From positions 46,329 to 110,328 of IMG/VR virus record IMGVR_UViG_3300025929_000012: a DNA stretch of 64,000 nucleotides, one strand, 5' to 3'. How positions within the stretch are numbered: position 1 is the first letter of the stretch; every line of letters begins with the position of its first letter. The translations under genes and the position numbers were made by a program. The notes below the pieces were generated by a model, which worked only from the letters and a program-made list of their open reading frames with translations, did no database searches and was not told the DNA's origin. Below, one piece after another: positions 30,091-48,546 of the stretch. This DNA is from a virus.

Positions 30091-31620
30091 CTAAGCCTTC
30101 GGTATCCCGAGGGTGGGCATCCCGAACGGCTCGGCGATGTTCTCCGGCAGCGGCTCACGGCCCGCCTGGGCGAGGGCCTGCTGCGCCACCCGGGTAGCAG
30201 CCGCCGTCCCCCCCGCCAGCCGCCCCAGTGACGCCGCTGCTTCCTTCGGCATCCCCGGCGGCGCCGTCGCCACCACGTGGGCCTCCCGGTCCCTAGCGCC
30301 CTGCTGCACGATCTGCGACACCGCGTCCACGTCCAGGTTCAAGACCGTCGCCAGCCGTTCCGTGATCAGGTCGAGGATCGCGGGCGGCACCTGCAGCGAC
30401 GGGGCAACGGCCAGCTCCTGGAACAGGCCCACCAGCTGGGATGACGACTCGTCGGTGAGCGCCCCGAACTTGAACACCGGGTAGGCGGCGGACGGCCCGA
30501 AGTTCAATGTGACTAGCGGCGCTATCACGTCATGGGTGAGGGACTCGGCGATCTCCGCCGAGATGGCCTGCCGGGACTTCAGGAAGAACGCGCTCTGGTC
30601 CTGGGACAAGGCGAGGCTGCCCTTGCCCATGGACGCGAGGCTGGACAGCCCCGTGAAGCCTGCGAGAACCGATGCGGTCTGCCACGTCTCCAGGAACGCG
30701 AGCGCATCGGCAAATTGTGAGGCGCCTTTCCCTGAGCTTTCGAGCACCTCGAAGTCTTTTGCGCCCTGCGGGCCTCTTGTGAATCCCGCCACCCCGGAAG
30801 CCCGCATTGAGGCGACGTCATCAGCTCGCGCATTGGCCTCACGCTGATCCTGGCCGTACACGATCACTTTAGGCAACGACTGTTGCTCAAGGAACGCCAG
30901 CCACAAAAAGACCAACTTTAGCTTCGTTTTGTAACACCAGTAACAGACCGCTAGCTCGGACGTGCCGGTTAGCGGCTCACGGTGCCGGCCATTTACGTGG
31001 ACGAACGAGCGCACCTTCGGGATGTCCACCCAGCCCGGCGTGGACCCCGGTCTCGTGCTCAGCGCCTGGCCGCCGAGCAGGAACAACTGCTGGCGGAAGC
31101 CCATCTCAGCGGCCGTCTTCGGATCGCGGCGCAGCTCGCACGTGGCGGTCGGGCGGTGCGCGAGCTTCTCGTAGGTGACCGCGCCGTCTTCCTCGCGAAT
31201 CCGGAAAATCTTTTCGTGAAAGGATTTTCTATAGATTTGCGCTGACGTGACTTGCCCGATGACATCCTGCAGCGGCGTCTTCATGCCGCCGGACGTGGCG
31301 GGGGCGAACAGCGCGGAGTTGCAAAGCTCTGCCTCGCCGCTGTCGCCCTTGGACGGCTCGATCGCCCGCGATGCCTGCCTGATGGGCAGGGTCAGGACGG
31401 CCTCAAGCGCAGACGCCTGGCCGTCCTGGTCAAGCATCTTCGCAACGTCACGACTTGACCACTCTCCGTAGTCGAGTACCGAGCCGTCACCGAACGTGGA
31501 GAACATGCGGGTCATGGAGTCGTACTGAGTCCCGAGTTCCCCGCCGAGGATCTGGTTGCGAGTCGCGGGCTTCAGGTCGGGGAACTTGACGATGCGCGCC
31601 GTCTGCGGGTCGGGAGCCAC
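30091..31620 (-). CDS. Portal protein (Mu gp29 / DUF935-like)
   Basis: 509 aa after terminase; GSLALSQDQSAFF...IAPLVTLNFG. Confidence 0.85.
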   Translation of the reverse strand: MAPDPQTARIVKFPDLKPATRNQILGGELGTQYDSMTRMFSTFGDGSVLDYGEWSSRDVAKMLDQDGQASALEAVLTLPIRQASRAIEPSKGDSGEAELCNSALFAPATSGGMKTPLQDVIGQVTSAQIYRKSFHEKIFRIREEDGAVTYEKLAHRPTATCELRRDPKTAAEMGFRQQLFLLGGQALSTRPGSTPGWVDIPKVRSFVHVNGRHREPLTGTSELAVCYWCYKTKLKLVFLWLAFLEQQSLPKVIVYGQDQREANARADDVASMRASGVAGFTRGPQGAKDFEVLESSGKGASQFADALAFLETWQTASVLAGFTGLSSLASMGKGSLALSQDQSAFFLKSRQAISAEIAESLTHDVIAPLVTLNFGPSAAYPVFKFGALTDESSSQLVGLFQELAVAPSLQVPPAILDLITERLATVLNLDVDAVSQIVQQGARDREAHVVATAPPGMPKEAAASLGRLAGGTAAATRVAQQALAQAGREPLPENIAEPFGMPTLGIPKA

Positions 31621-31650
31621 GAGCGCCCCCCGTCGCTACGCTGGGGTTTC

Positions 31651-32165: not shown

Positions 32166-33866
32166 TCACCTCCACGTGCGGACGTTGGGCCGGTCGGGGC
32201 GGCCGTCGTCGTCCTGCGGCGCCCACGCGTCCGGGGAATCCCACCCGTCCCGCCTGTCCCGGTCATCCGGACCACCGGGACGGCGACGCGACCTGTCCTC
32301 CGTCAGCCGCTCCAAGTCGGTGTGCGCCGCCCACTGCCTCGCCGACGGAGAATGAGGCAGTGAACGCGGCCAGTAGCTCTGAACGCAGGCGTCACCGTCG
32401 TCCGTGCTGCGGCCAAGCCGCTTCTCGATCTCGTCCTTGGACTCCACCGCGATCTTGCCCCCGGAGGTGACCGTCCACTGAGGGGCCGACAGGTCGCCGA
32501 GCAGCATCTCGTCGTCGGGGAGGCACAGGTCCGAGCCCGCCGACGGGTCAAGCTGTTCCCTGAGGCCCCACCAGGCCGCGCTGCGGGTGCAGTTGAAACC
32601 GAGGGTGCCTGTGCTGTCCATGCGATCCGTGCGGTTCGACGCGCCGAACGCCTCCACCTTGCAGCCCTGCTCATGCAGCCGGTCGTACACGCCGCCGCCG
32701 ACGCCGACCACGTCAATGACCGCGGTGCGGGCCGGGTCCGCGTCGAGAACAGCCTTTACCTTGCCCGCGGTGACCATCGTGCTTTCCTTGGCCGTCTTCC
32801 GCAGCTCCACCAGCACCGGGCCGTTGCGGACCGCGATTACCGTCTTCGCGGTCCCGTACCTGGCGACGTCCACGCCCGCCGTGCGCGGGTAGTCCATGTC
32901 GGTGCCCGGCCTGCCCGCGAGGTCCCACTCATGCCAGCGCTCAACCGCCGCCTCGGCCCACGCCAGGGGGATGACCGAGTCCTCATCGCCGGCGTGGAAC
33001 TCGCCCAGCACCCGGTTCTGGTAGATGCTCGAATCGGGGCCCCACTGGAGCGCACGCTGGGCGGCCCATGCCGGGTCGATCTGCCCCGCCGCTATCGCCT
33101 GGTCGAGGGTTATGTGGACGGCGTGCCAGTCCTCGTAGCCGGGCTTGCGGGACTGGATGTCATAGAAGCGGCCAGACGGCGCACCGGGCGTTGACAGGGC
33201 CAGCGCGAACGCTTCCCCGGTGCCGTTCAGCGCGCCCTCGCAGGCGTCGAACGTGCCCGCCGGGATCGCCTTAGCCTCATCGAAGACGAACAGGAGGCTG
33301 TCAGCGTGCGCGCCCTCAATGAGGGCCGAGTTGGCGGACGCGCTGGCGAACGCCGCGCCGTGGTTGAGGCGCAGGTTCAGGTTCATCAGCTCATTGGGGC
33401 TGAACGGGTGGCCGCGAAGGCGGACGTTGAGCTCCTCGTGGGCGGTCAGCCGGTCACCGCGGACCTTGTCCCAGCGGACCCGGACGGCCCAGCGGTGGAT
33501 CTCCCTCCACAGGAACTTGGAGATCTGATGCCATGACCCGGCGGTGGTCGCGACCTTCCAGTCCACCCCGGCGGCCTCGCGGGTCAGCGCGAACCACAAG
33601 ACTGTTATCGCGGACAGCGCCGACTTGCCTGCGCCGTGCGGCGAGCGGACGCATACCCGCTTAGCGGCAGGCAGGCCGCCGATGATCTCCCGCTGGTAGG
33701 CGGTGAGGCTCTTGCCGCGCCAGTCGATGCAGTCCTCGGCGAACGCTACCGGGTCGTTGTAGTACCGCTGCGACGCCGCTGCCTGGCTGGCCGCTGCCTG
33801 CCGCTGAAGGTCACGGAGGTAGCGGAGACGGTCAGGCGGTGCCTGTACCAGCCGGGTCGTTGGCAC
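32166..33866 (-). CDS. terL: Terminase large subunit
   Basis: Walker A SPHGAGKS, Walker B FVFDEA, nuclease GVDVARYG, IDVVGVGGG, STDDGDA. Confidence 0.95.
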   Translation of the reverse strand: MPTTRLVQAPPDRLRYLRDLQRQAAASQAAASQRYYNDPVAFAEDCIDWRGKSLTAYQREIIGGLPAAKRVCVRSPHGAGKSALSAITVLWFALTREAAGVDWKVATTAGSWHQISKFLWREIHRWAVRVRWDKVRGDRLTAHEELNVRLRGHPFSPNELMNLNLRLNHGAAFASASANSALIEGAHADSLLFVFDEAKAIPAGTFDACEGALNGTGEAFALALSTPGAPSGRFYDIQSRKPGYEDWHAVHITLDQAIAAGQIDPAWAAQRALQWGPDSSIYQNRVLGEFHAGDEDSVIPLAWAEAAVERWHEWDLAGRPGTDMDYPRTAGVDVARYGTAKTVIAVRNGPVLVELRKTAKESTMVTAGKVKAVLDADPARTAVIDVVGVGGGVYDRLHEQGCKVEAFGASNRTDRMDSTGTLGFNCTRSAAWWGLREQLDPSAGSDLCLPDDEMLLGDLSAPQWTVTSGGKIAVESKDEIEKRLGRSTDDGDACVQSYWPRSLPHSPSARQWAAHTDLERLTEDRSRRRPGGPDDRDRRDGWDSPDAWAPQDDDGRPDRPNVRTWR

Positions 33867-39785: not shown

Positions 39786-40204
39786 CAGCGCCGTCCCCTC
39801 GAAGGGCCGGCGACCGCGGCGTGCAGGTCACGGGCGGCGCGCAGGATGTCATCGGGGCTGGCGTCCTGGTGCTCGCACGTCATCCACAGCGCCGTCTTCC
39901 GCAGGTGGTAGTCAGCGTCGCCGCCGGCTTCGCTGAGCCATGCCCGCCACTCTTCGGCGACGCCGTACACGCGGGCGCGGCCGTGGAACAGCGCGTTGCC
40001 GCGAGCCTCCAGGCGCAGGTAGCGGGCGGCGAGCGCGATCGTTACGGCCTGCGCCGCGAACAGCCGGTCAGCGACTGGCAGTTCCGGGTCAAGGCCGGTG
40101 ACGCCCTTCCACCAGGGGTCGGCGTGCACGCAGGCCACGTGCGGCCCGGGGGGCGGCGGGATGGTCAACTGGTCCTCCGCTGTGTACGGGATAAGAGTGG
40201 TCAC
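39782..40204 (-). CDS. Hypothetical protein
   Basis: GTGA coupling. Confidence 0.6.
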
Positions 40205-42186
40205 TGGGCTGCCTCCTGGCCGCTGATGAGCGCCAGCACGGCGCCCAGGTCTTCGGGGGCCTTGAGCACGTCGCGGGCCTTGGATCCCTCACTCGGCCCG
40301 ACGATGCCCCGGCTTTCCAGCAGGTCCATCAGCCGCCCGGCCTTCGCGAAGCCGACGCGGAGCTTGCGCTGGAGCATTGACGTGGAGCCGAACTGGGTGG
40401 TGATGATCAGCTCGGCGGCCTGGGCGAGGAGGTCCCGCTCGTCGTCGTCCACGATGCCCGCAGATCCCCCGCCGGCGTCCCCGTCCGGGCCGCCGCCGGC
40501 GGGCGGGGCCACGGTGGCGTAGGCGACCGGGCCGCAAGCCTTCACCTGGGCGACGACCCGGGCGATCTCCTCCTCGGACACGAACGCGTTCTGCAGCCGC
40601 ACCGGGCGGGACGCGCCCATCGGCAGCCACAGGCAGTCACCCTGGCCGGTCAGCTTCTCCGCGCCCGGCTGGTCCAGGATCACCCTGGAGTCAGTCAGCG
40701 ACGATGTCGCGAACGCCAGCCGCGACGGTACGTTCGCCTTGATCAGCCCCGTGACGACGTCCACCGACGGCCGCTGGGTGGCGAGCACCAGGTGGATCCC
40801 GGCAGCGCGGGCGAGCTGGGTGATCCGCACGATGGATTCCTCGACGTCACGGGGGGCGACCATCATCAGGTCGGCGAGCTCGTCGACGATAGCCACCAGG
40901 TAGGGGTAGGGCTCATACACCCGCTGCGAGCCGGGCGGCGGGACCAGCTTCCCGGCCCGCACCGCCTTGTTGAAGTCGTCCACGTGCCGGTAGCCCGAGG
41001 CCGCGAGGTCGTCGTAGCGGCGGTCCATCTCCCCGACGACCCACTCCAGGGCCTCGGCCGCCTTCTTCGGGCTGGTGATGACCGGGGTGATCAGGTGCGG
41101 CACGCCTTCGTAGACCGAGAACTCGACCCGCTTCGGGTCGATGAGGATCATCCGCACCTCCTCCAGGGTGGTGCGGGTCAGCAGGCCCGTGATCAGCCCG
41201 TTGAGGCAAACAGATTTCCCGCTCCCGGTCGCGCCGGCGATGATCACGTGCGGCATCTTCGCGAGGTTCGCCAGGACGATGCGGCCTTCCACGTCCTTGC
41301 CCAGGCCGACGGTCATCGGGTGATGGTCGGCGACCGCCTGCGGGGAACGCAGGACGTCACCGAGCATCACCGTCTCCCGGTCCTCGTTCCTGCGGGGCAC
41401 GTGGACGCCGACGGCCTTCTCGCCGGGCACGGGGGCCTGGACCATGACATCGCCCGGAGTCTTCGCCTCGTAGGCGAAGTTCTTTGCCAGCGCGGCGATC
41501 TTCTCCACCTTCACCGCGCCAGTGAGGGTCAGGTCATAGCGGATGACCTGCGGGCCGCTGACCCTGCCGGTGACGGCGGCGGGAATTTCGAACTGGGCAA
41601 GGACGGACTGCAGCGCCTTCGCGGCCGGGTCGTCCTCCAGGCTGGGATGGGGGCCGACCTGGGGTTCTGGGAGGCTGGCGAGAACAGCCGGGCCTGGCGG
41701 CGCGTACGCGGTGCCTGCCGCCGCGGGCACCGTAACGTCATCAGGGCCGGCGGGCTCGCTGGCGATGACCTGCCCGGCGAGTACCCCGGCGGCAGGCCGG
41801 GCGGCCTCGGTGACAGCAGCGGGCGGCTGGCCGGGCACGGGGTGGAAGGCCCGCCAGGAGCAGGACGCGGCGGTGAAGCCGCCGCCCGCGACCCAGGCGG
41901 CCTGCATGACCCCGCCGGCGCCGACCGGGGTGATGAGCACCGCGACAGTCAGCCACGCCGCTGCCGCCACCGCCACCATGATCACGGCCCGGCCGTCCGC
42001 GCGGGATGCCCTGGTGGCGATCATGAAGATGGTGACGGCAGCGACGGCGACGGCGGCGGCAGTGAGGCGCCCGGCGGGATGGCGGGCGGCCAGGTGGGCG
42101 ATGATCGCGTAGGCGTCCCCGGCGGCGAGCAGCAGCCACGGGGCCGCTGCTCGCCTGCCCGGCATCCCGGCTGCTGGGATGGTCAC
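40201..42186 (-). CDS. FtsK/SpoIIIE DNA translocase with N-terminal TMs and gamma domain
   Basis: [36 protein letters not shown]; gamma [22 protein letters not shown]; likely GTG start overlapping upstream stop. Confidence 0.95.
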
Positions 42187-42878
42187 GAGGCCTCCTTCGC
42201 CGGGCGCGGAGGGGCTGGCAGCCGGCCGGGACCGGGCTGGCCGCCGGCGGCCTGGGTGCCCGGGTGGGCGCGGCGCGGCGCGGCGGCCTTGCCGGCCTTG
42301 CGGTAGCCGCGGACGAACACGAGCGCGAGCACGACCAGGAAGGCCACGGCGATGATGACCACCGGGTGCCCCCCCGCCGAATGAGCGGCGGCGGCCGGGT
42401 GACGGTGACCGCCGGCGGGTGCCGTGAAGGCGGTGCCGCTGATGACGCCGGCGGCGGCGTGCCGGGCGCTGGCCAGCCCCTGACCGGTGCTGCGGGTGAT
42501 CTGGTGCCACCCGCCGATCACCAGGGCCAGCGCGGCGGCGAAGGTGACGGACACCGCGATCGTCCCGTGGTGATGATGGGCTTTACCCCGGAAGGCGCCC
42601 AGGAACGCGAAGACCCCGGTGACCGCCAGCACCGCCAGCAGGACCACCAGCCCGGCCCCGGCCCCGGTGACCTGCCACAGCACCGCGAGGCTCGGCGCGA
42701 ACGCGATCATGCCGCAGAACACGGCGACCGCGAAGATGACCGCGGCGGCCCGCTCGCACGCAGCCGTCCTCTTGCCCTTCGCCTCCGCCCCGCCGCCTTT
42801 CACGTGGTTCCGCATCGTGAAGACGAGGACCCCGGCCACGGTGGCGAGCACCGCGACGGCGGCCATTGGCCCGTTCAT
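42183..42878 (-). CDS. Multi-TM membrane protein (Spd/transfer-like)
   Basis: About 5 hydrophobic segments; coupled to the FtsK gene. Confidence 0.7.
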
Positions 42879-42906: not shown

Positions 42907-43539
42907 TCATCCGAAGATGAGGATGATGAGGGCTAGCACCCCGGTAATGGCGAGCACCGTGAAAATGCGCGCGAACCGGTCACCGGCCCAGTCAATCCGG
43001 GTGCCCGCGAACACCAGCGCCTCGCCGGCGATGATGAGCGCTTTCCCGGTGAGCTTCGCCGGGGCGGTAACGGCCAGGTGGCCGGCGACGAATGCCCGCC
43101 CGGCCCACGGGGCGCCGATCTCCTCCAGGACCGGGTGGGCGGTGACGTGCCGCCAGTGCTGGCGCATCGTCTCCGTGCTGGGGCTGGCGAGCTCGGCGAG
43201 GAGGCCGCCGGGGCCGCCGCCGACCGCCTCGCTGCCGGCCAGGGTCCCCAGGTGCGCCCGCAGGCGGAGGCCGGGCGCGGAGCGGGCCTCCCGGGCGGCG
43301 GGCCCGCCGGGCCCTGTTACCCACTCGCTGGTACCGAGCCAGTCAAGCGACCGCGGGTCGTTTCCCCCGCCGGGGTGATCGCCGTTACCCGGCGGGGTAA
43401 CGCCGGAGGTGACAGCGGGGGTAACGGGCGGGGTAACGCCGGGGGAAACATCCGGGGTAACAGTGCCGGGGGAAACGGCGTAGTCCGGGTCGGCCCAGTA
43501 GTCAACTGTGCCGCCGGTGTCATAGGGCATGGCGGTCAT
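42907..43539 (-). CDS. Membrane-anchored protein with VTP repeats
   Basis: AGGAGG SD; C-terminal TM. Confidence 0.7.
   Translation of the reverse strand: MTAMPYDTGGTVDYWADPDYAVSPGTVTPDVSPGVTPPVTPAVTSGVTPPGNGDHPGGGNDPRSLDWLGTSEWVTGPGGPAAREARSAPGLRLRAHLGTLAGSEAVGGGPGGLLAELASPSTETMRQHWRHVTAHPVLEEIGAPWAGRAFVAGHLAVTAPAKLTGKALIIAGEALVFAGTRIDWAGDRFARIFTVLAITGVLALIILIFG
43384..43476 (+). repeat. GGG(T/A)AAC array 1, 12-bp period
   Basis: Copies ending 43401, 43413 (variant), 43425, 43437, 43449, 43461, 43476, plus one inverted copy at 43384. Confidence 0.85.
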
Positions 43540-44039
43540 CGGGGGTCCTCCTGTCCGGGTCGCCGGGCCAGCGCCCGGAACGTCGCGGTGACCGGGGCGA
43601 GCGGCGCCCACCCGGCCGGGTTGAGCTTCCGGGGCTCCCGGAACCACGGGTCGGGCTGCTCGCCGCGCTCGACCGCGGCGGCCAGCGCGTCGATCACGTG
43701 GACCGTCGCCCAGCACCAGGCGGCGGCGTAGTGCCAGTTACGGCGGCTGGCAGGACGAAACACGCTGGTCAGGTACTCCACGGCGCGGGCCAGGGCCATG
43801 AACGGGTCAGTCTCCGCGTTGACCCTCGCGACGCCGGGAGCCCCCCGCCGGCCCCTTCCCTGCAATACCACTGCCGGGGAAGGGGTATAATCACGCGCCG
43901 GCGACGCATGCCTGCCCGTCGGGCGAGGCCACGGCCCCCCTTCGAGGGCACCCGGGCCCACGGGGGAGGGGCGTTCGGGGCGGCCCCGCGGGCCCGGCCC
44001 GGTAACGTTCTGGTCACGGATCTCTCGCATGCCGGTCAC
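43536..44039 (-). CDS. Hypothetical protein
   Basis: GTGA/ATGA coupling. Confidence 0.6.
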   Translation of the reverse strand: MTGMREIRDQNVTGPGPRGRPERPSPVGPGALEGGPWPRPTGRHASPARDYTPSPAVVLQGRGRRGAPGVARVNAETDPFMALARAVEYLTSVFRPASRRNWHYAAAWCWATVHVIDALAAAVERGEQPDPWFREPRKLNPAGWAPLAPVTATFRALARRPGQEDPR

Positions 44040-44935
44040 TCCCCGGCCGCTGACTGCCCGGCAGCGCGGGCTTCCTTGACTCGCTTCACCAGCGGCGCGA
44101 CGCGCTTCGGGGTGCCGCCGTACTCGTCCATGAAGGCGCGGACGGTGAGGTCCAGGCCGGCCCGCTCGCGCTCATCGGCGAGCTTCATCGCCAGGGCCCA
44201 CATCTCGTCGTCGGCCATGGGGGGCTTGCGCATCAGGTCCGTGACGGTCGCCAGCGGGCCCGTCTCGTCCTCCGGCGGCTCGATGGCGAGGGGGGTGGCA
44301 AGGGGGAGCGCGGCCTGTCCGGCGTTACCCTCCGGGAGGCCCTGCGCGTTACCCGCGAGGCCCCCGGACGCGTTACCCCAGCCGTTACCCTCCCTGTTAC
44401 CCCCGGCGTTACCCTGGCTGTTACCCCGGCTGTTACCCGGCCTGGAGAACCGGGCCGCGAGCGCCTCACGCTCCGCCTCAAGCCGCCGCGCCTCCTGCCG
44501 GGCCTCCCACCGGGCGAGGTCCGCAGACTGGGATGCCGAGTACATGAGGACCCCGACTGCCGTGAGGGCCGCCAGGTCCAGGCCGTAGGACGCGACGCCC
44601 GCCGGCACGGTGCCCATCCCCGGCGTGAGGACCTTGATGCCGGACGACGCGGACGCGAACATCAGGGCCGCGGCGATCCCGCCCACCCATATCTTCAGGG
44701 TCCAGTGGAAATTCACGTGCGCGGCCACGTGGGACAGGATCGCCACCAGCAGCGGCACCGCGAGGCCGACTGTCCAGCCGATTAGCGCGGGCATGTGCCC
44801 GAGCTTCACGTGCTGGTAAATGTTCAGCTCAACCGAAATGGTCAGCGCGATGACCGTGCCCGCCTCGCACGCGTACGCCACGTCCTTGCGGAGCGTCTTC
44901 GGACGCGGGTCGTGTAGCGCCTTAATGTCACTCAA
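44036..44935 (-). CDS. SpdA/DUF2637-like membrane protein
   Basis: 4 TMs, coiled coil, GN-repeat linker, C-terminal helical domain. Confidence 0.65.
   Translation of the reverse strand: MSDIKALHDPRPKTLRKDVAYACEAGTVIALTISVELNIYQHVKLGHMPALIGWTVGLAVPLLVAILSHVAAHVNFHWTLKIWVGGIAAALMFASASSGIKVLTPGMGTVPAGVASYGLDLAALTAVGVLMYSASQSADLARWEARQEARRLEAEREALAARFSRPGNSRGNSQGNAGGNREGNGWGNASGGLAGNAQGLPEGNAGQAALPLATPLAIEPPEDETGPLATVTDLMRKPPMADDEMWALAMKLADERERAGLDLTVRAFMDEYGGTPKRVAPLVKRVKEARAAGQSAAGE
44324..44438 (-). repeat. GGGTAAC array 2, eight perfect copies
   Basis: GTTACCC on + strand at 44324, 44348, 44372, 44384, 44396, 44408, 44420, 44432. Confidence 0.9.
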
Positions 44936-46077: not shown

Positions 46078-46337
46078 GACGCCTCCTTCTCGCTGCCGGG
46101 CCGGGTGTTGACGGTCAGCACGGCGATCGCGAGGGTCACGTATGTGGCGGCGAGCGTCAGCCACAGCGCGTGGCGCCCGTGGCCCGCGAGGATGAGCGCG
46201 AGTTCCACGACGGCAGCCGGGATGCCCCACAGGGCGACCCGGAGGGCCTGCGCCGTGACACGGCGGGACCGCACTGGGCCACCGGAGACCGTGATCATGT
46301 ACACGGGCTCAGGGAACGGGATCACGGGGAGCCTCAT
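46074..46337 (-). CDS. Small membrane protein
   Basis: Two TMs; coupled. Confidence 0.55.
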   Translation of the reverse strand: MRLPVIPFPEPVYMITVSGGPVRSRRVTAQALRVALWGIPAAVVELALILAGHGRHALWLTLAATYVTLAIAVLTVNTRPGSEKEAS

Positions 46338-46633: not shown

Positions 46634-46944
46634 GACGACTCCTCCCCTGCCGGGATGACCCGCTCCAGGCACACGTAGGAGTCCCCGGCATGCCAGAAGA
46701 TCAGGTAGTCGCCGAACCGGTCCCAGTAGCCTTGCCCGGCCATCGGGGTGGCGGGCCTGTCCTCAACCGGGCCTGTCCCCCTGTCGCGCTCGCCGGCGAG
46801 GAACCTCGCCACCTCAGTGACGCCCAGCTGGCCGTACTCGCTGATGTGCCGCAGGTACCAGCGTGCGTAGTCGTGCTCCAGGTGCGCGACATGCTGGTAG
46901 CGGTCACCCGGCACCGGGGACCATCCGCTCTTGTGCCCGGTCAC
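46630..46944 (-). CDS. Hypothetical protein
   Basis: GTGA/ATGA coupling. Confidence 0.55.
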   Translation of the reverse strand: MTGHKSGWSPVPGDRYQHVAHLEHDYARWYLRHISEYGQLGVTEVARFLAGERDRGTGPVEDRPATPMAGQGYWDRFGDYLIFWHAGDSYVCLERVIPAGEESS

Positions 46945-47384
46945 GCGGTCACCTGCTCTCGTGCCTGGTCCCACGCAGCGGCCAGGACGACCCGGAGCGG
47001 CGGTGAGCAAGGCAGCCCGCCCGCGTGCCCGCAGGCGTCAAGGAGGAGGTCCCCGGCAGTGCCCGGGTCGCCGTCAGCGGCAGTGAGGAGGGCGAGCGAC
47101 GCCGCGTTCAGCGCATGCCACAGGCCCGCCCGCCACGGCGCATCGGCGTTCGACGGCCTGGAGGCGGCGAGGACCAGGCCGAGGGCGTGGACGACCTCAG
47201 GCGCGGCGGTGACCCCGGAGGCGGCGTCACGGGCTGCCCCCCATGCGGCCCGCGCCCGGTGAGGCCTGCCCGAGCCTGCCTCGTCGACCGCGACAGCGCA
47301 CAGGTCAAGGGCGTCGTACAAGGCGAACAGCGCCTCCGGCGGCGGGCCCTCATGGCCGCACCCCGGGGCGCAGGGCGCGGTCAT
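46941..47384 (-). CDS. Hypothetical protein
   Basis: ATGA overlap with 47381-47578. Confidence 0.5.
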   Translation of the reverse strand: MTAPCAPGCGHEGPPPEALFALYDALDLCAVAVDEAGSGRPHRARAAWGAARDAASGVTAAPEVVHALGLVLAASRPSNADAPWRAGLWHALNAASLALLTAADGDPGTAGDLLLDACGHAGGLPCSPPLRVVLAAAWDQAREQVTA

Positions 47385-47578
47385 GACACGGCCTGCAGGT
47401 GCCGCCGCTTCCCCGCAGGGCGCGGGAAAATGCGGGCCTCGGTGTCGGCGCACCCCTGCTCGTAGGCGGCTGCGGCGATCTGCCCGTGCAGTTCCCCGGC
47501 GCGCAAGGCCCGCAGGAACTCCCGCTGCTGCTCGGTCAGTTCCGGGGCCGGGGCGTCGCCGGGTGATAGTGTGTCCAT
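47381..47578 (-). CDS. Hypothetical protein
   Basis: GAAAGG SD; ends RHLQAVS. Confidence 0.55.
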   Translation of the reverse strand: MDTLSPGDAPAPELTEQQREFLRALRAGELHGQIAAAAYEQGCADTEARIFPRPAGKRRHLQAVS

Positions 47579-48546
47579 CAGTCGTGAACCTTTCAGTGGG
47601 GGAATGACTTACGGCGGGTCCCGGCGTGGCAGCGTCACGGGGCCCGCTTTCATTGGCGGGGCTGTTACCGGTGGTACGGGCACCCCGCGCCGACGTTGGC
47701 GCACAGGATGCAGTGGTCGCGGTCGGGTCCGTCTTCGCGCATGACAGCGCTCCTTCACTCGCCCGGGGCGAGCAGCCAGGGCACGGCAGGCCAGCCCACT
47801 TCGGGGACCCGCAGTTCAGGCAGACCCCGGTCTGGTCAAGGGCGTCCGGGACGGCTGCGGTCACGCGGGTGACAGGCTGCATCGGATGCCCGCACGTCGG
47901 GCACGCGCCCGGCGCCGAGGACATGTTCCCGTGGCAGGCGTAAGCGGGGGCGGCGGCCGGAGGGTAAGGGATGAAGGGGGTGCCGTCGGGGAGCGCCCCC
48001 GGCAGCGGCGGCAGTGCCGGGAGCCGCACCGCGCCCCGCTTGTCCGGCGGCTGGCTGGCCATCTTGGCGTACTGGCGCAGGACGATCTCAGCGACCCTGC
48101 ACGACGGGCACGGGTACCCGGCCTCGATGACGTGCCGCCAAGCCAGGCAGCACTCGTGAACCGGGCCGTCGCCGTCAGCGCGCCACGACGGGCGGGCGCA
48201 GATGCGGCACGGGGCCGCTTCCAGTACAGCGCTGGTCCGGTTCAGGTTCTGCGGCGGCACCGGGGTGTACGCCATGCCGGCCGGCCGTGGCGGCGCGCAG
48301 GCGGCGCACAGCCGGCCACCGGGGTACAGGCCCGCCGGGGACCCGCCGCACGTGCTGCACGGCGCGGTCATCACGCAGCCGCCTTCACAGCCGGGGCGGT
48401 CATCGTGACCTCCGGGGCGTCCATCTGATGGGTCGCGCCGTCTGCCGGGCAGATCCCCCGGGCACCGCCACCTACCGGGGCCAGCTCACGATCCGGGTGG
48501 ACCGGGCAGGCGACGGCGGCGCGGATGCGGAGAGCGGAGGTGGTCA

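Follow-up and report, generated by a model that had tools for sequence, protein, structure and literature searches.

Cis-acting sites can lie inside coding sequence, as lambda ori does within gene O and P1 pac within pacA. In Streptomyces plasmids, clusters of repeats mark the DNA for an FtsK-like pump, and SpdA has been proposed to connect this DNA with the translocation complex (PMC3583192, PMC4447253, PMC4170104). The clt loci are clusters of 7-9-bp repeats that may extend into a tra gene (PMC3583192, PMC4447253), and the clt of pWTY27 reaches 16 bp into traA (PMC3583192). KfrA, a long-helix protein with a helix-turn-helix (HTH) head, binds a set of five 9-bp repeats, of which three point one way and two the opposite way, and aids plasmid maintenance (PMC7783346). 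Here, we describe two opposed arrays of the heptamer GGGTAAC that lie within the coding sequence of two membrane-protein genes, close to a gene for an FtsK-type translocase. They are found in IMG/VR virus record IMGVR_UViG_3300025929_000012, which consists of one 110,328-bp contig and has the look of a large temperate tailed phage of soil actinobacteria; its last 64 kb (positions 46,329 to 110,328; GC 70.7%) is the whole stretch that was analyzed and is called the window below. The arrays are nonrandom and are maintained at the DNA level across relatives, and the selection that maintains them acts on the DNA rather than on the peptide, given that they persist while the codon, the peptide, and even the reading frame change.

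The arrays and the copies next to them are listed here, with R standing for a purine.
43395-43476, + strand: array 1, made up of four exact GGGTAAC copies, two of GGGAAAC, and a degenerate one, at a period of about 12 bp.
44324-44438, - strand: array 2, with eight exact copies of GGGTAAC(R), whose reading is xxG-GGT-AAC (Gly-Asn), within the disordered linker of a 299-aa protein.
43316-43390, - strand: three copies opposed to array 1, exact at 43316 and 43384 and GGGAAAC at 43360.

The exact copies of array 2 start at 44324, 44348, 44372, 44384, 44396, 44408, 44420, and 44432 (spacing 24, 24, and then 12 five times). Those of array 1 start at 43395, 43419, 43431, and 43455, and its 12-bp register is filled by the one-mismatch word GGGAAAC at 43443 and 43470 and by a degenerate copy near 43407. 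A first, sequence-only reading of this DNA had reported both arrays with this spacing and eight perfect minus-strand copies, all of which was borne out; of the two stray copies it had mentioned, the one near 43315 is exact at 43316, and the one near 44000 agrees at only 6 of 7 positions (CGGTAAC). The two arrays are convergent and about 0.85 kb apart, and the copies at 43384-43390 and 43395-43401 together form the near-palindrome GTTACCCggcgGGGTAAC. In all 14 exact copies of the locus, the seven core positions do not vary and a purine follows as the eighth, while the spacer positions are not conserved. The k-mer enrichment that the sequence-only reading had suggested as a check was clear: GGGTAAC occurs 18 times in the window, and shuffles gave 3.13 +/- 1.52 (maximum 8). 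The remaining 46 kb of the contig lacks the word, and of the 18 copies in the 110-kb contig, 14 fall within 1.2 kb (43316-44438).

Both host genes lie on the minus strand, so that one heptamer is read in opposite orientations and in different frames and yields two different peptides, x-G-N and V-T/S-P. Array 2 occupies a stretch of the 299-aa protein (residues 167-236) that is predicted to be disordered in its AlphaFold2 model, with a predicted local distance difference test score (pLDDT) of <50. Array 1 reads GTT-WCC-CCx (Val-Thr/Ser-Pro) on the coding strand, in the low-complexity N-terminal region of a 210-aa protein. These frames agree with the earlier statement that the heptamer encodes VT(P) in one gene and GN in the other. 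In the codon usage of the contig, Gly is written GGT in 7.3% of cases and Val is written GTT in 5.5%. Nevertheless, all eight Gly codons of array 2 are GGT, for which the probability under contig codon usage is about 8e-10, and the base preceding GGT is G in 8/8; in the array 1 region, GTT is used in 6/7 Val codons. Among multiples of three, the period of 12 bp is the closest to a helical turn, and it is the position of the sites in linkers that makes a DNA code laid over the protein code possible.

Homologs of the 299-aa protein were found in soil metagenomes only (22 clusters, 48-89% identity). The GN dipeptides are invariant columns in 18 homologs, and the rest of the linker is variable. 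At the DNA level, the codon comparison covers the window and three related loci, L001 to L003. L001 (55% identity) carries RGGGAACG five times in each gene, in convergent arrays about 0.9 kb apart, with the words GGGGAAC/GGGAAC in place of GGGTAAC. Its 299-aa homolog keeps Gly-Asn as GGG-AAC despite the change from GGT to GGG, and in the downstream gene, on the opposite strand, the word reads GTT-CCC, by which VTP has become VP (Val-Pro). L002 (66% identity) and L003 (41%) still write GN as GGT-AAC with a G before it, and L003 has two additional GGGGAAC copies in another frame, where they read Gly-Gly-Thr. The sequence-only reading had proposed beforehand to ask whether homologs keep an array while motif and peptide change, and L001 and L003 do so, with changes in motif, codons, and peptide. 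Peptides of the partner-gene family fall into V-T-P, V-S-P/V-A-P, and V-P types (the S/A types being judged from peptides alone), which are exactly the residues that GTT-NCC-C allows. GGG-N-AAC(R) is therefore the best notation for the word, the fourth base being biased by lineage, and the word predicts which residues are permitted, namely, x-G-N for one strand and V-[TSAP]-P for the opposite strand.

The two host genes belong to a coupled run of genes on the minus strand, upstream of the packaging genes. The order of this run is a 98-aa open reading frame (ORF), the 299-aa, 87-aa, 210-aa, and 231-aa proteins (the last with multiple transmembrane [TM] segments), FtsK, a 140-aa ORF, an NlpC/P60 hydrolase, and a transglycosylase-like protein. 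The features concerned are as follows.
44036-44935, - strand: gene of the 299-aa protein, with four TM helices, a long helix, a disordered GN-repeat linker that holds array 2, and, at the C terminus (residues ~242-297), an HTH-like domain of three helices.
43840-43905, - strand: conserved island in the module's only intergenic gap, roughly midway between the arrays, aligned with L001 4395-4470.
43536-43799, - strand: gene of the 87-aa protein, between the arrays and kept in L001, its stop overlapping the next start (ATGA).
42907-43539, - strand: gene of the 210-aa protein, with an N-terminal V-[TSAP]-P repeat region that holds array 1 and a C-terminal membrane anchor.
42183-42878, - strand: gene of the 231-aa multi-TM protein, kept in L001.
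40201-42210, - strand: gene of the FtsK-type translocase, a TM N terminus followed by alpha, beta, and gamma domains, of housekeeping type.
32166-33866, - strand: gene of the large terminase (TerL).
30091-31635, - strand: gene of a Mu-type portal.

The module order o98, p299, p87, p210, p231, FtsK, NlpC/P60, o170 is the same in L001, where the arrays are accompanied by this FtsK/membrane/hydrolase module and not by replication, integration, or packaging genes. The nearest TerL relatives lack the module. The four small or membrane proteins had no match in Pfam, PHROGs, NCBIfam, or PADLOC. A MuF-like protein is also encoded on the minus strand of the window, and elsewhere on the contig, beyond the window, are genes for a tyrosine integrase, a DUF3987 helicase-like protein, and a GH25 lysin, together with long tail genes. 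Genes from 44935 down to FtsK are tightly packed with a single gap of 236 bp (43800-44035), and an ATGA-type overlap of start and stop joins the 87-aa and 210-aa genes (43536-43539), with another listed at 44036-44039. The tight packing, the ATGA overlaps, and the one gap suggest translational coupling with one internal control region. Farther along the window, gene calls across 46.3-48.4 kb are uncertain, and a 477-aa ORF at 46941-48374, unmatched in families, structures, and the atlas and ambiguous in its codon-position signal, was not used.

The island in the gap consists of CGGCGCGTGATTATA followed by inverted G-rich arms, CCCCTTCCC...GGGAAGGGG. The arm GGGAAGGGG of the window corresponds to GGGGGAGGGG in L001, and the pattern common to the two is CGGCGCGTGAT..TACCCCTTCCC, a variable loop, and GGG(A/G)AGGGGCCGGCG. 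The arms are inverted G-rich words that resemble FtsK orienting polar sequences (KOPS), and the L001 arm includes GGGGGAGG. The hairpin has a predicted energy of -34 kcal/mol with a z-score of only -1.7, no more stable than shuffles. The island could be a promoter, a terminator, or a second protein site.

Our favored explanation, to which we give somewhat less than an even chance, is that both arrays form a clt- or centromere-like cis-acting handle, coated by a DNA-binding protein encoded in the module and tied to the FtsK module. We draw this from the arrays traveling with the FtsK/membrane/hydrolase module and from the precedent of the Streptomyces clt. That a protein of some kind binds the arrays is probable; that they serve FtsK-linked DNA handling is a more tentative proposal. 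According to this explanation, cis-acting protein-binding sites would be written into the disordered linkers of two membrane-protein genes, a placement that would keep GGG-N-AAC(R) at a 12-bp, codon-compatible period without harm to the proteins. A sequence-specific DNA-binding protein from the same conserved module would coat both arrays, the best candidate being the 299-aa protein, anchored in the membrane and binding through the HTH-like domain at its C terminus. Phage DNA would then be held at the membrane beside the FtsK-type pump of the module, and the outcome would be a handle for moving or segregating the phage genome. The sequence-only reading had likewise proposed a cis-acting site connected with the adjacent FtsK and membrane-protein genes, and this remains the best reading, although its alternative of a partition locus was not supported in that no ParA/ParB partner lies nearby. 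A clt-like function without membership of the family of TraB and the TraB recognition sequences (TRS) is the most economical reading.

We considered the 299-aa protein as the reader of the arrays. In the AlphaFold model, it has four TM helices, a long helix, and a disordered linker, followed by a confident three-helix C-terminal domain, and this domain modeled alone again gave three helices (pLDDT 82). The full-length model, when used for structure searches, matched nothing but generic helical bundles, and the fold matches of the C-terminal domain were mostly HTH or winged HTH (wHTH) DNA-binding domains. The domain also gave faint matches to KfrA_N, and by hhalign, it aligned in register with the mapped HTH of KfrA from plasmid RA3 at a subthreshold E value of 0.084. 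The 299-aa protein itself, which the sequence-only reading had called SpdA-like, had no Pfam, PHROG, NCBIfam, or plasmid match that would support that name, and it was also without a match in the phage collection, in IMG/VR (searched by peptide patterns), and in GTDB genomes. What did stand from that proposal was the DNA-binding candidacy; the C-terminal domain is HTH-like and is, though weak, a better candidate reader than the gamma domain of FtsK, the other protein proposed. Judged on these models, the 299-aa protein as binder of the arrays through a putative HTH-like C-terminal domain is possible but doubtful.

Several observations weigh against the favored explanation and against this candidate in particular. 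The fold matches to HTH and wHTH domains are weak (Foldseek E >1; VIA Z <= 6.1), and the matches to KfrA_N (PF11740) are faint, with E values of 0.013 (L003) and 0.056 (1/18 homologs), below the gathering score of 26.1 bits. The putative recognition helix is TPKRVAPLVKR in the window and KTERISPIIAE and KNARVAKIVRE in L001 and L003, yet the GGG..AAC core is unchanged. Conversely, 15/18 homologs have one common helix, while the partner-gene peptides suggest that position 4 of the word varies. There is thus no clean covariation of binder and motif: the FtsK gamma helix is invariant, and helix 3 of the 299-aa protein differs among relatives while the core stays the same. The membrane proteins of the module have no homolog on known conjugative plasmids or AICEs (integrative and conjugative elements of actinomycetes). 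Finally, the DNA for the four related loci comes from one metagenome scan, and both arrays are spanned by L001 alone.

A stronger version of the proposal is that the phage carries a working conjugation-like apparatus for double-stranded DNA translocation (FtsK, membrane proteins, and wall hydrolases), with the opposed arrays as its clt, the membrane-anchored HTH protein as an adaptor, and the central G-rich inverted repeat as the entry point for FtsK. We regard this version as speculative and unlikely to hold in full. If it were true, phage DNA, and not host DNA, would be pumped between hyphal compartments or into spores without virions.

An alternative is that the adjacent FtsK reads the arrays directly through its gamma domain, as KOPS- or TRS-like loading sites, in which case the opposed pair would load two hexamers with opposite polarity. 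Arrays and FtsK share one operon, with the arrays within 3.5 kb upstream, an arrangement kept in L001; the motif is 7-8 bp long, begins GGGNA as does KOPS GGGNAGGG, and has a fourth position that drifts by lineage, comparable to the KOPS N. Three KOPS in tandem give good loading of FtsK in vitro and likewise in vivo (PMC3384302), and TraB reads its repeated 8-bp TRS through a wHTH (PMC3583192, PMC4447253). The gamma recognition helix is identical in the window and in L001, matching the invariant GGG..AAC core, which fits direct reading but is not positive evidence for it. However, the translocase is not of the TraB family. The Pfam domains are FtsK_SpoIIIE (1e-65), FtsK_gamma (2.5e-23), and FtsK_alpha (8.7e-15), and in NCBIfam the plasmid_TraB model scored 78.9 bits against a cutoff of 800, while the FtsK equivalog gave an E value of 1e-114. 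The motor and gamma domains of the phage protein share 71% identity with a chromosomal actinobacterial FtsK, that of a Thermopolyspora genome, but are fused to a different Ala-rich TM N terminus. The phage FtsK looks like a captured housekeeping gene. PADLOC matches of FtsK to SspH/HerA reflect merely the shared ATPase domain and were set aside.

The Thermopolyspora genome also bears on what this gamma domain reads, given that gamma helix 2, the recognition helix (helix 3), and the wing are essentially the same in the phage and Thermopolyspora proteins. In 400 kb of its chromosome (G001:C1:440001-840000, L225-L244), GGGNAAC is unskewed between strands (66:82), as are GGGNAACG (31:36) and the Escherichia coli-type KOPS GGGNAGGG (65:61), whereas GGGGGAG is by far the most strand-skewed 7-mer (93:21), with TGGGGGAG at 25:0 and CGGGGGAG at 51:9; this comparison presumes that an identical gamma domain means identical specificity. 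GGGNAACG occurs about 1,300 times in the whole genome, and a gamma domain that read GGGNAAC would be misled at each of these copies, which makes direct reading by FtsK gamma unlikely. We therefore disfavor the gamma domain as the reader, against the suggestion of the sequence-only reading, and consider loading of this kind improbable. GGGGGAG is a candidate KOPS for actinobacterial FtsK proteins with the gamma helix type of the Thermopolyspora genome counted here. In the phage, neither GGGGGAG nor GGGNAGGG switches polarity at the locus.

A comparably small probability goes to the arrays serving another phage DNA transaction with a different phage or host binder, as origin iterons flanking an unwinding region, as a bipartite pac site for a small terminase, or as arm-type sites for a recombinase or Xis. 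Opposed repeat sets in coding sequence are familiar from origins and pac sites such as lambda ori and P1 pac. The origin of pWTY27 has five copies of GTGGGAAC and five of TTCCCAC, which are bound by RepA, and its core matches the GGGAAC of L001 (PMC3583192). Our scan for three phased copies of GGGTAAC found >200 loci, none homologous to the module; they are unrelated tandem repeats or other binding-site arrays. Among them, noncoding GGGTAAC arrays in both orientations occur in the unrelated contigs L130/L196, L010, L030 (=L136), L007, and L220. Their settings include the position after a VapE-like helicase gene (L130) or beside a tyrosine integrase (L010), which would suit a replication or recombination role, and also the flanks of a small HTH gene in a Rhodothalassium prophage (L030) and an Actinomycetota metagenome-assembled genome (L007). 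These noncoding arrays are analogous binding-site arrays and not homologs of the module. The local context speaks against such a transaction, however: no replication initiator or Rep-like family is found among the neighbors, and the DUF3987 gene and the tyrosine integrase are 64-68 kb off; TerL (32166-33866) is 9-10 kb away with many genes between, and the locus has neither an AT-rich stretch nor an inflection in GC skew. It is the FtsK/membrane module, and not replication or packaging genes, that is conserved with the arrays in L001, and it is missing from the nearest TerL relatives.

A role at the RNA level is very improbable. The two arrays are reverse complements (GGGUAAC versus GUUACCC) on one polycistronic mRNA, could pair over 50-85 nt, and would make the L001 changes from T to G and from A to C compensatory. 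In the window, complementarity between the arms amounts to 72-81% across 54-85 nt; in L001, it is 84% across 45 nt. The change at position 4 preserves this complementarity. Nevertheless, heptamers in register alone would be about 73% complementary, with a small excess from the extended motif (R at +7), and pairing needs no identical words at a fixed period with free spacers. It would also leave unexplained the inverted copies at 43316-43390 and the palindrome. Against Rfam, there was a chance match only, and no family fits.

Hardly any probability remains for a peptide-level by-product, in which linkers grew by slippage or rare-codon clusters slow translation, for although the GN and V-x-P repeats are kept in all homologs, both in disordered linkers, and although GGT and GTT are both rare codons, the evidence for selection on the DNA rejects a peptide-repeat, slippage, or rare-codon-pausing origin: two unrelated peptides carry one DNA word in opposite orientation, a base outside the codon pair is fixed too (the G before GGT), recent duplication cannot account for the codon identity because the spacers have diverged, one of the L001 arrays uses GGG, a common codon (30%), L003 retains the word in another frame, and the four loci with DNA show the opposite of mixed synonymous codons.

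Should the arrays prove to be the handle of a phage-borne FtsK module, they would provide a defined and mutable DNA site, which synonymous recoding would alter while leaving both proteins unchanged. The role of a housekeeping-type FtsK in a phage of filamentous actinobacteria could then be addressed, with virion-independent spread, segregation into spores, and genome positioning among the possibilities. The locus is also a clean case of a regulatory or structural DNA code laid over the protein code in two genes simultaneously, and gene callers and peptide-repeat annotators would overlook such a word.

In summary, the locus shares features with several described systems and differs from each. 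Like the clt of Streptomyces plasmids and AICEs, which is bound by TraB at its TRS, it is a cluster of short repeats with a period of 12-14 bp that occurs once per element (PMC3583192, PMC4447253, PMC4170104), and it adjoins or lies partly inside an FtsK-like translocase module with membrane "Spd-like" proteins and cell wall hydrolases. The direct-repeat cluster of 7-9 bp at one locus that characterizes clt is present here (14 of 18 copies within 1.2 kb at a 12-bp period). In contrast to clt, the translocase is a housekeeping-type FtsK and not TraB, its gamma domain is probably not the reader, the element is a tailed temperate phage, and the repeats lie wholly within coding sequence as two opposed arrays about 0.85 kb apart. 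Like KOPS and the SpoIIIE recognition sequences (SRS), the repeat is a polar 7-8-bp word beginning GGGNA, found with an FtsK that has a canonical gamma domain (PMC3384302); unlike them, it is clustered at one locus rather than dispersed, and it is unskewed in a chromosome with the same gamma domain. As in lambda ori, P1 pac, and the clt of pWTY27, repeated putative protein-binding words are tolerated in an ORF, typically in a linker. Unlike lambda ori and P1 pac, the arrays are not in an initiator or terminase gene and are spread over two genes in inverted orientation; the initiator gene and AT-rich stretch of an iteron origin are absent from the locus, with the DUF3987 gene 64 kb away, and the repeat sets do not lie within or next to terminase genes as in P1-type pac, TerL being 9.5 kb away. 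KfrA of the IncU plasmid RA3 offers a likeness in the protein, given that the 299-aa protein combines a long helix with an HTH-like domain of faint KfrA_N similarity, although this similarity is subthreshold, the domain is C-terminal, and the protein is membrane anchored. As for the KfrA operator, the locus has the same sequence pattern of at least four short repeats in both orientations, whereas the arrays lie inside two coding regions with no promoter-like site found at them, and so do not mark the gene's own promoter.

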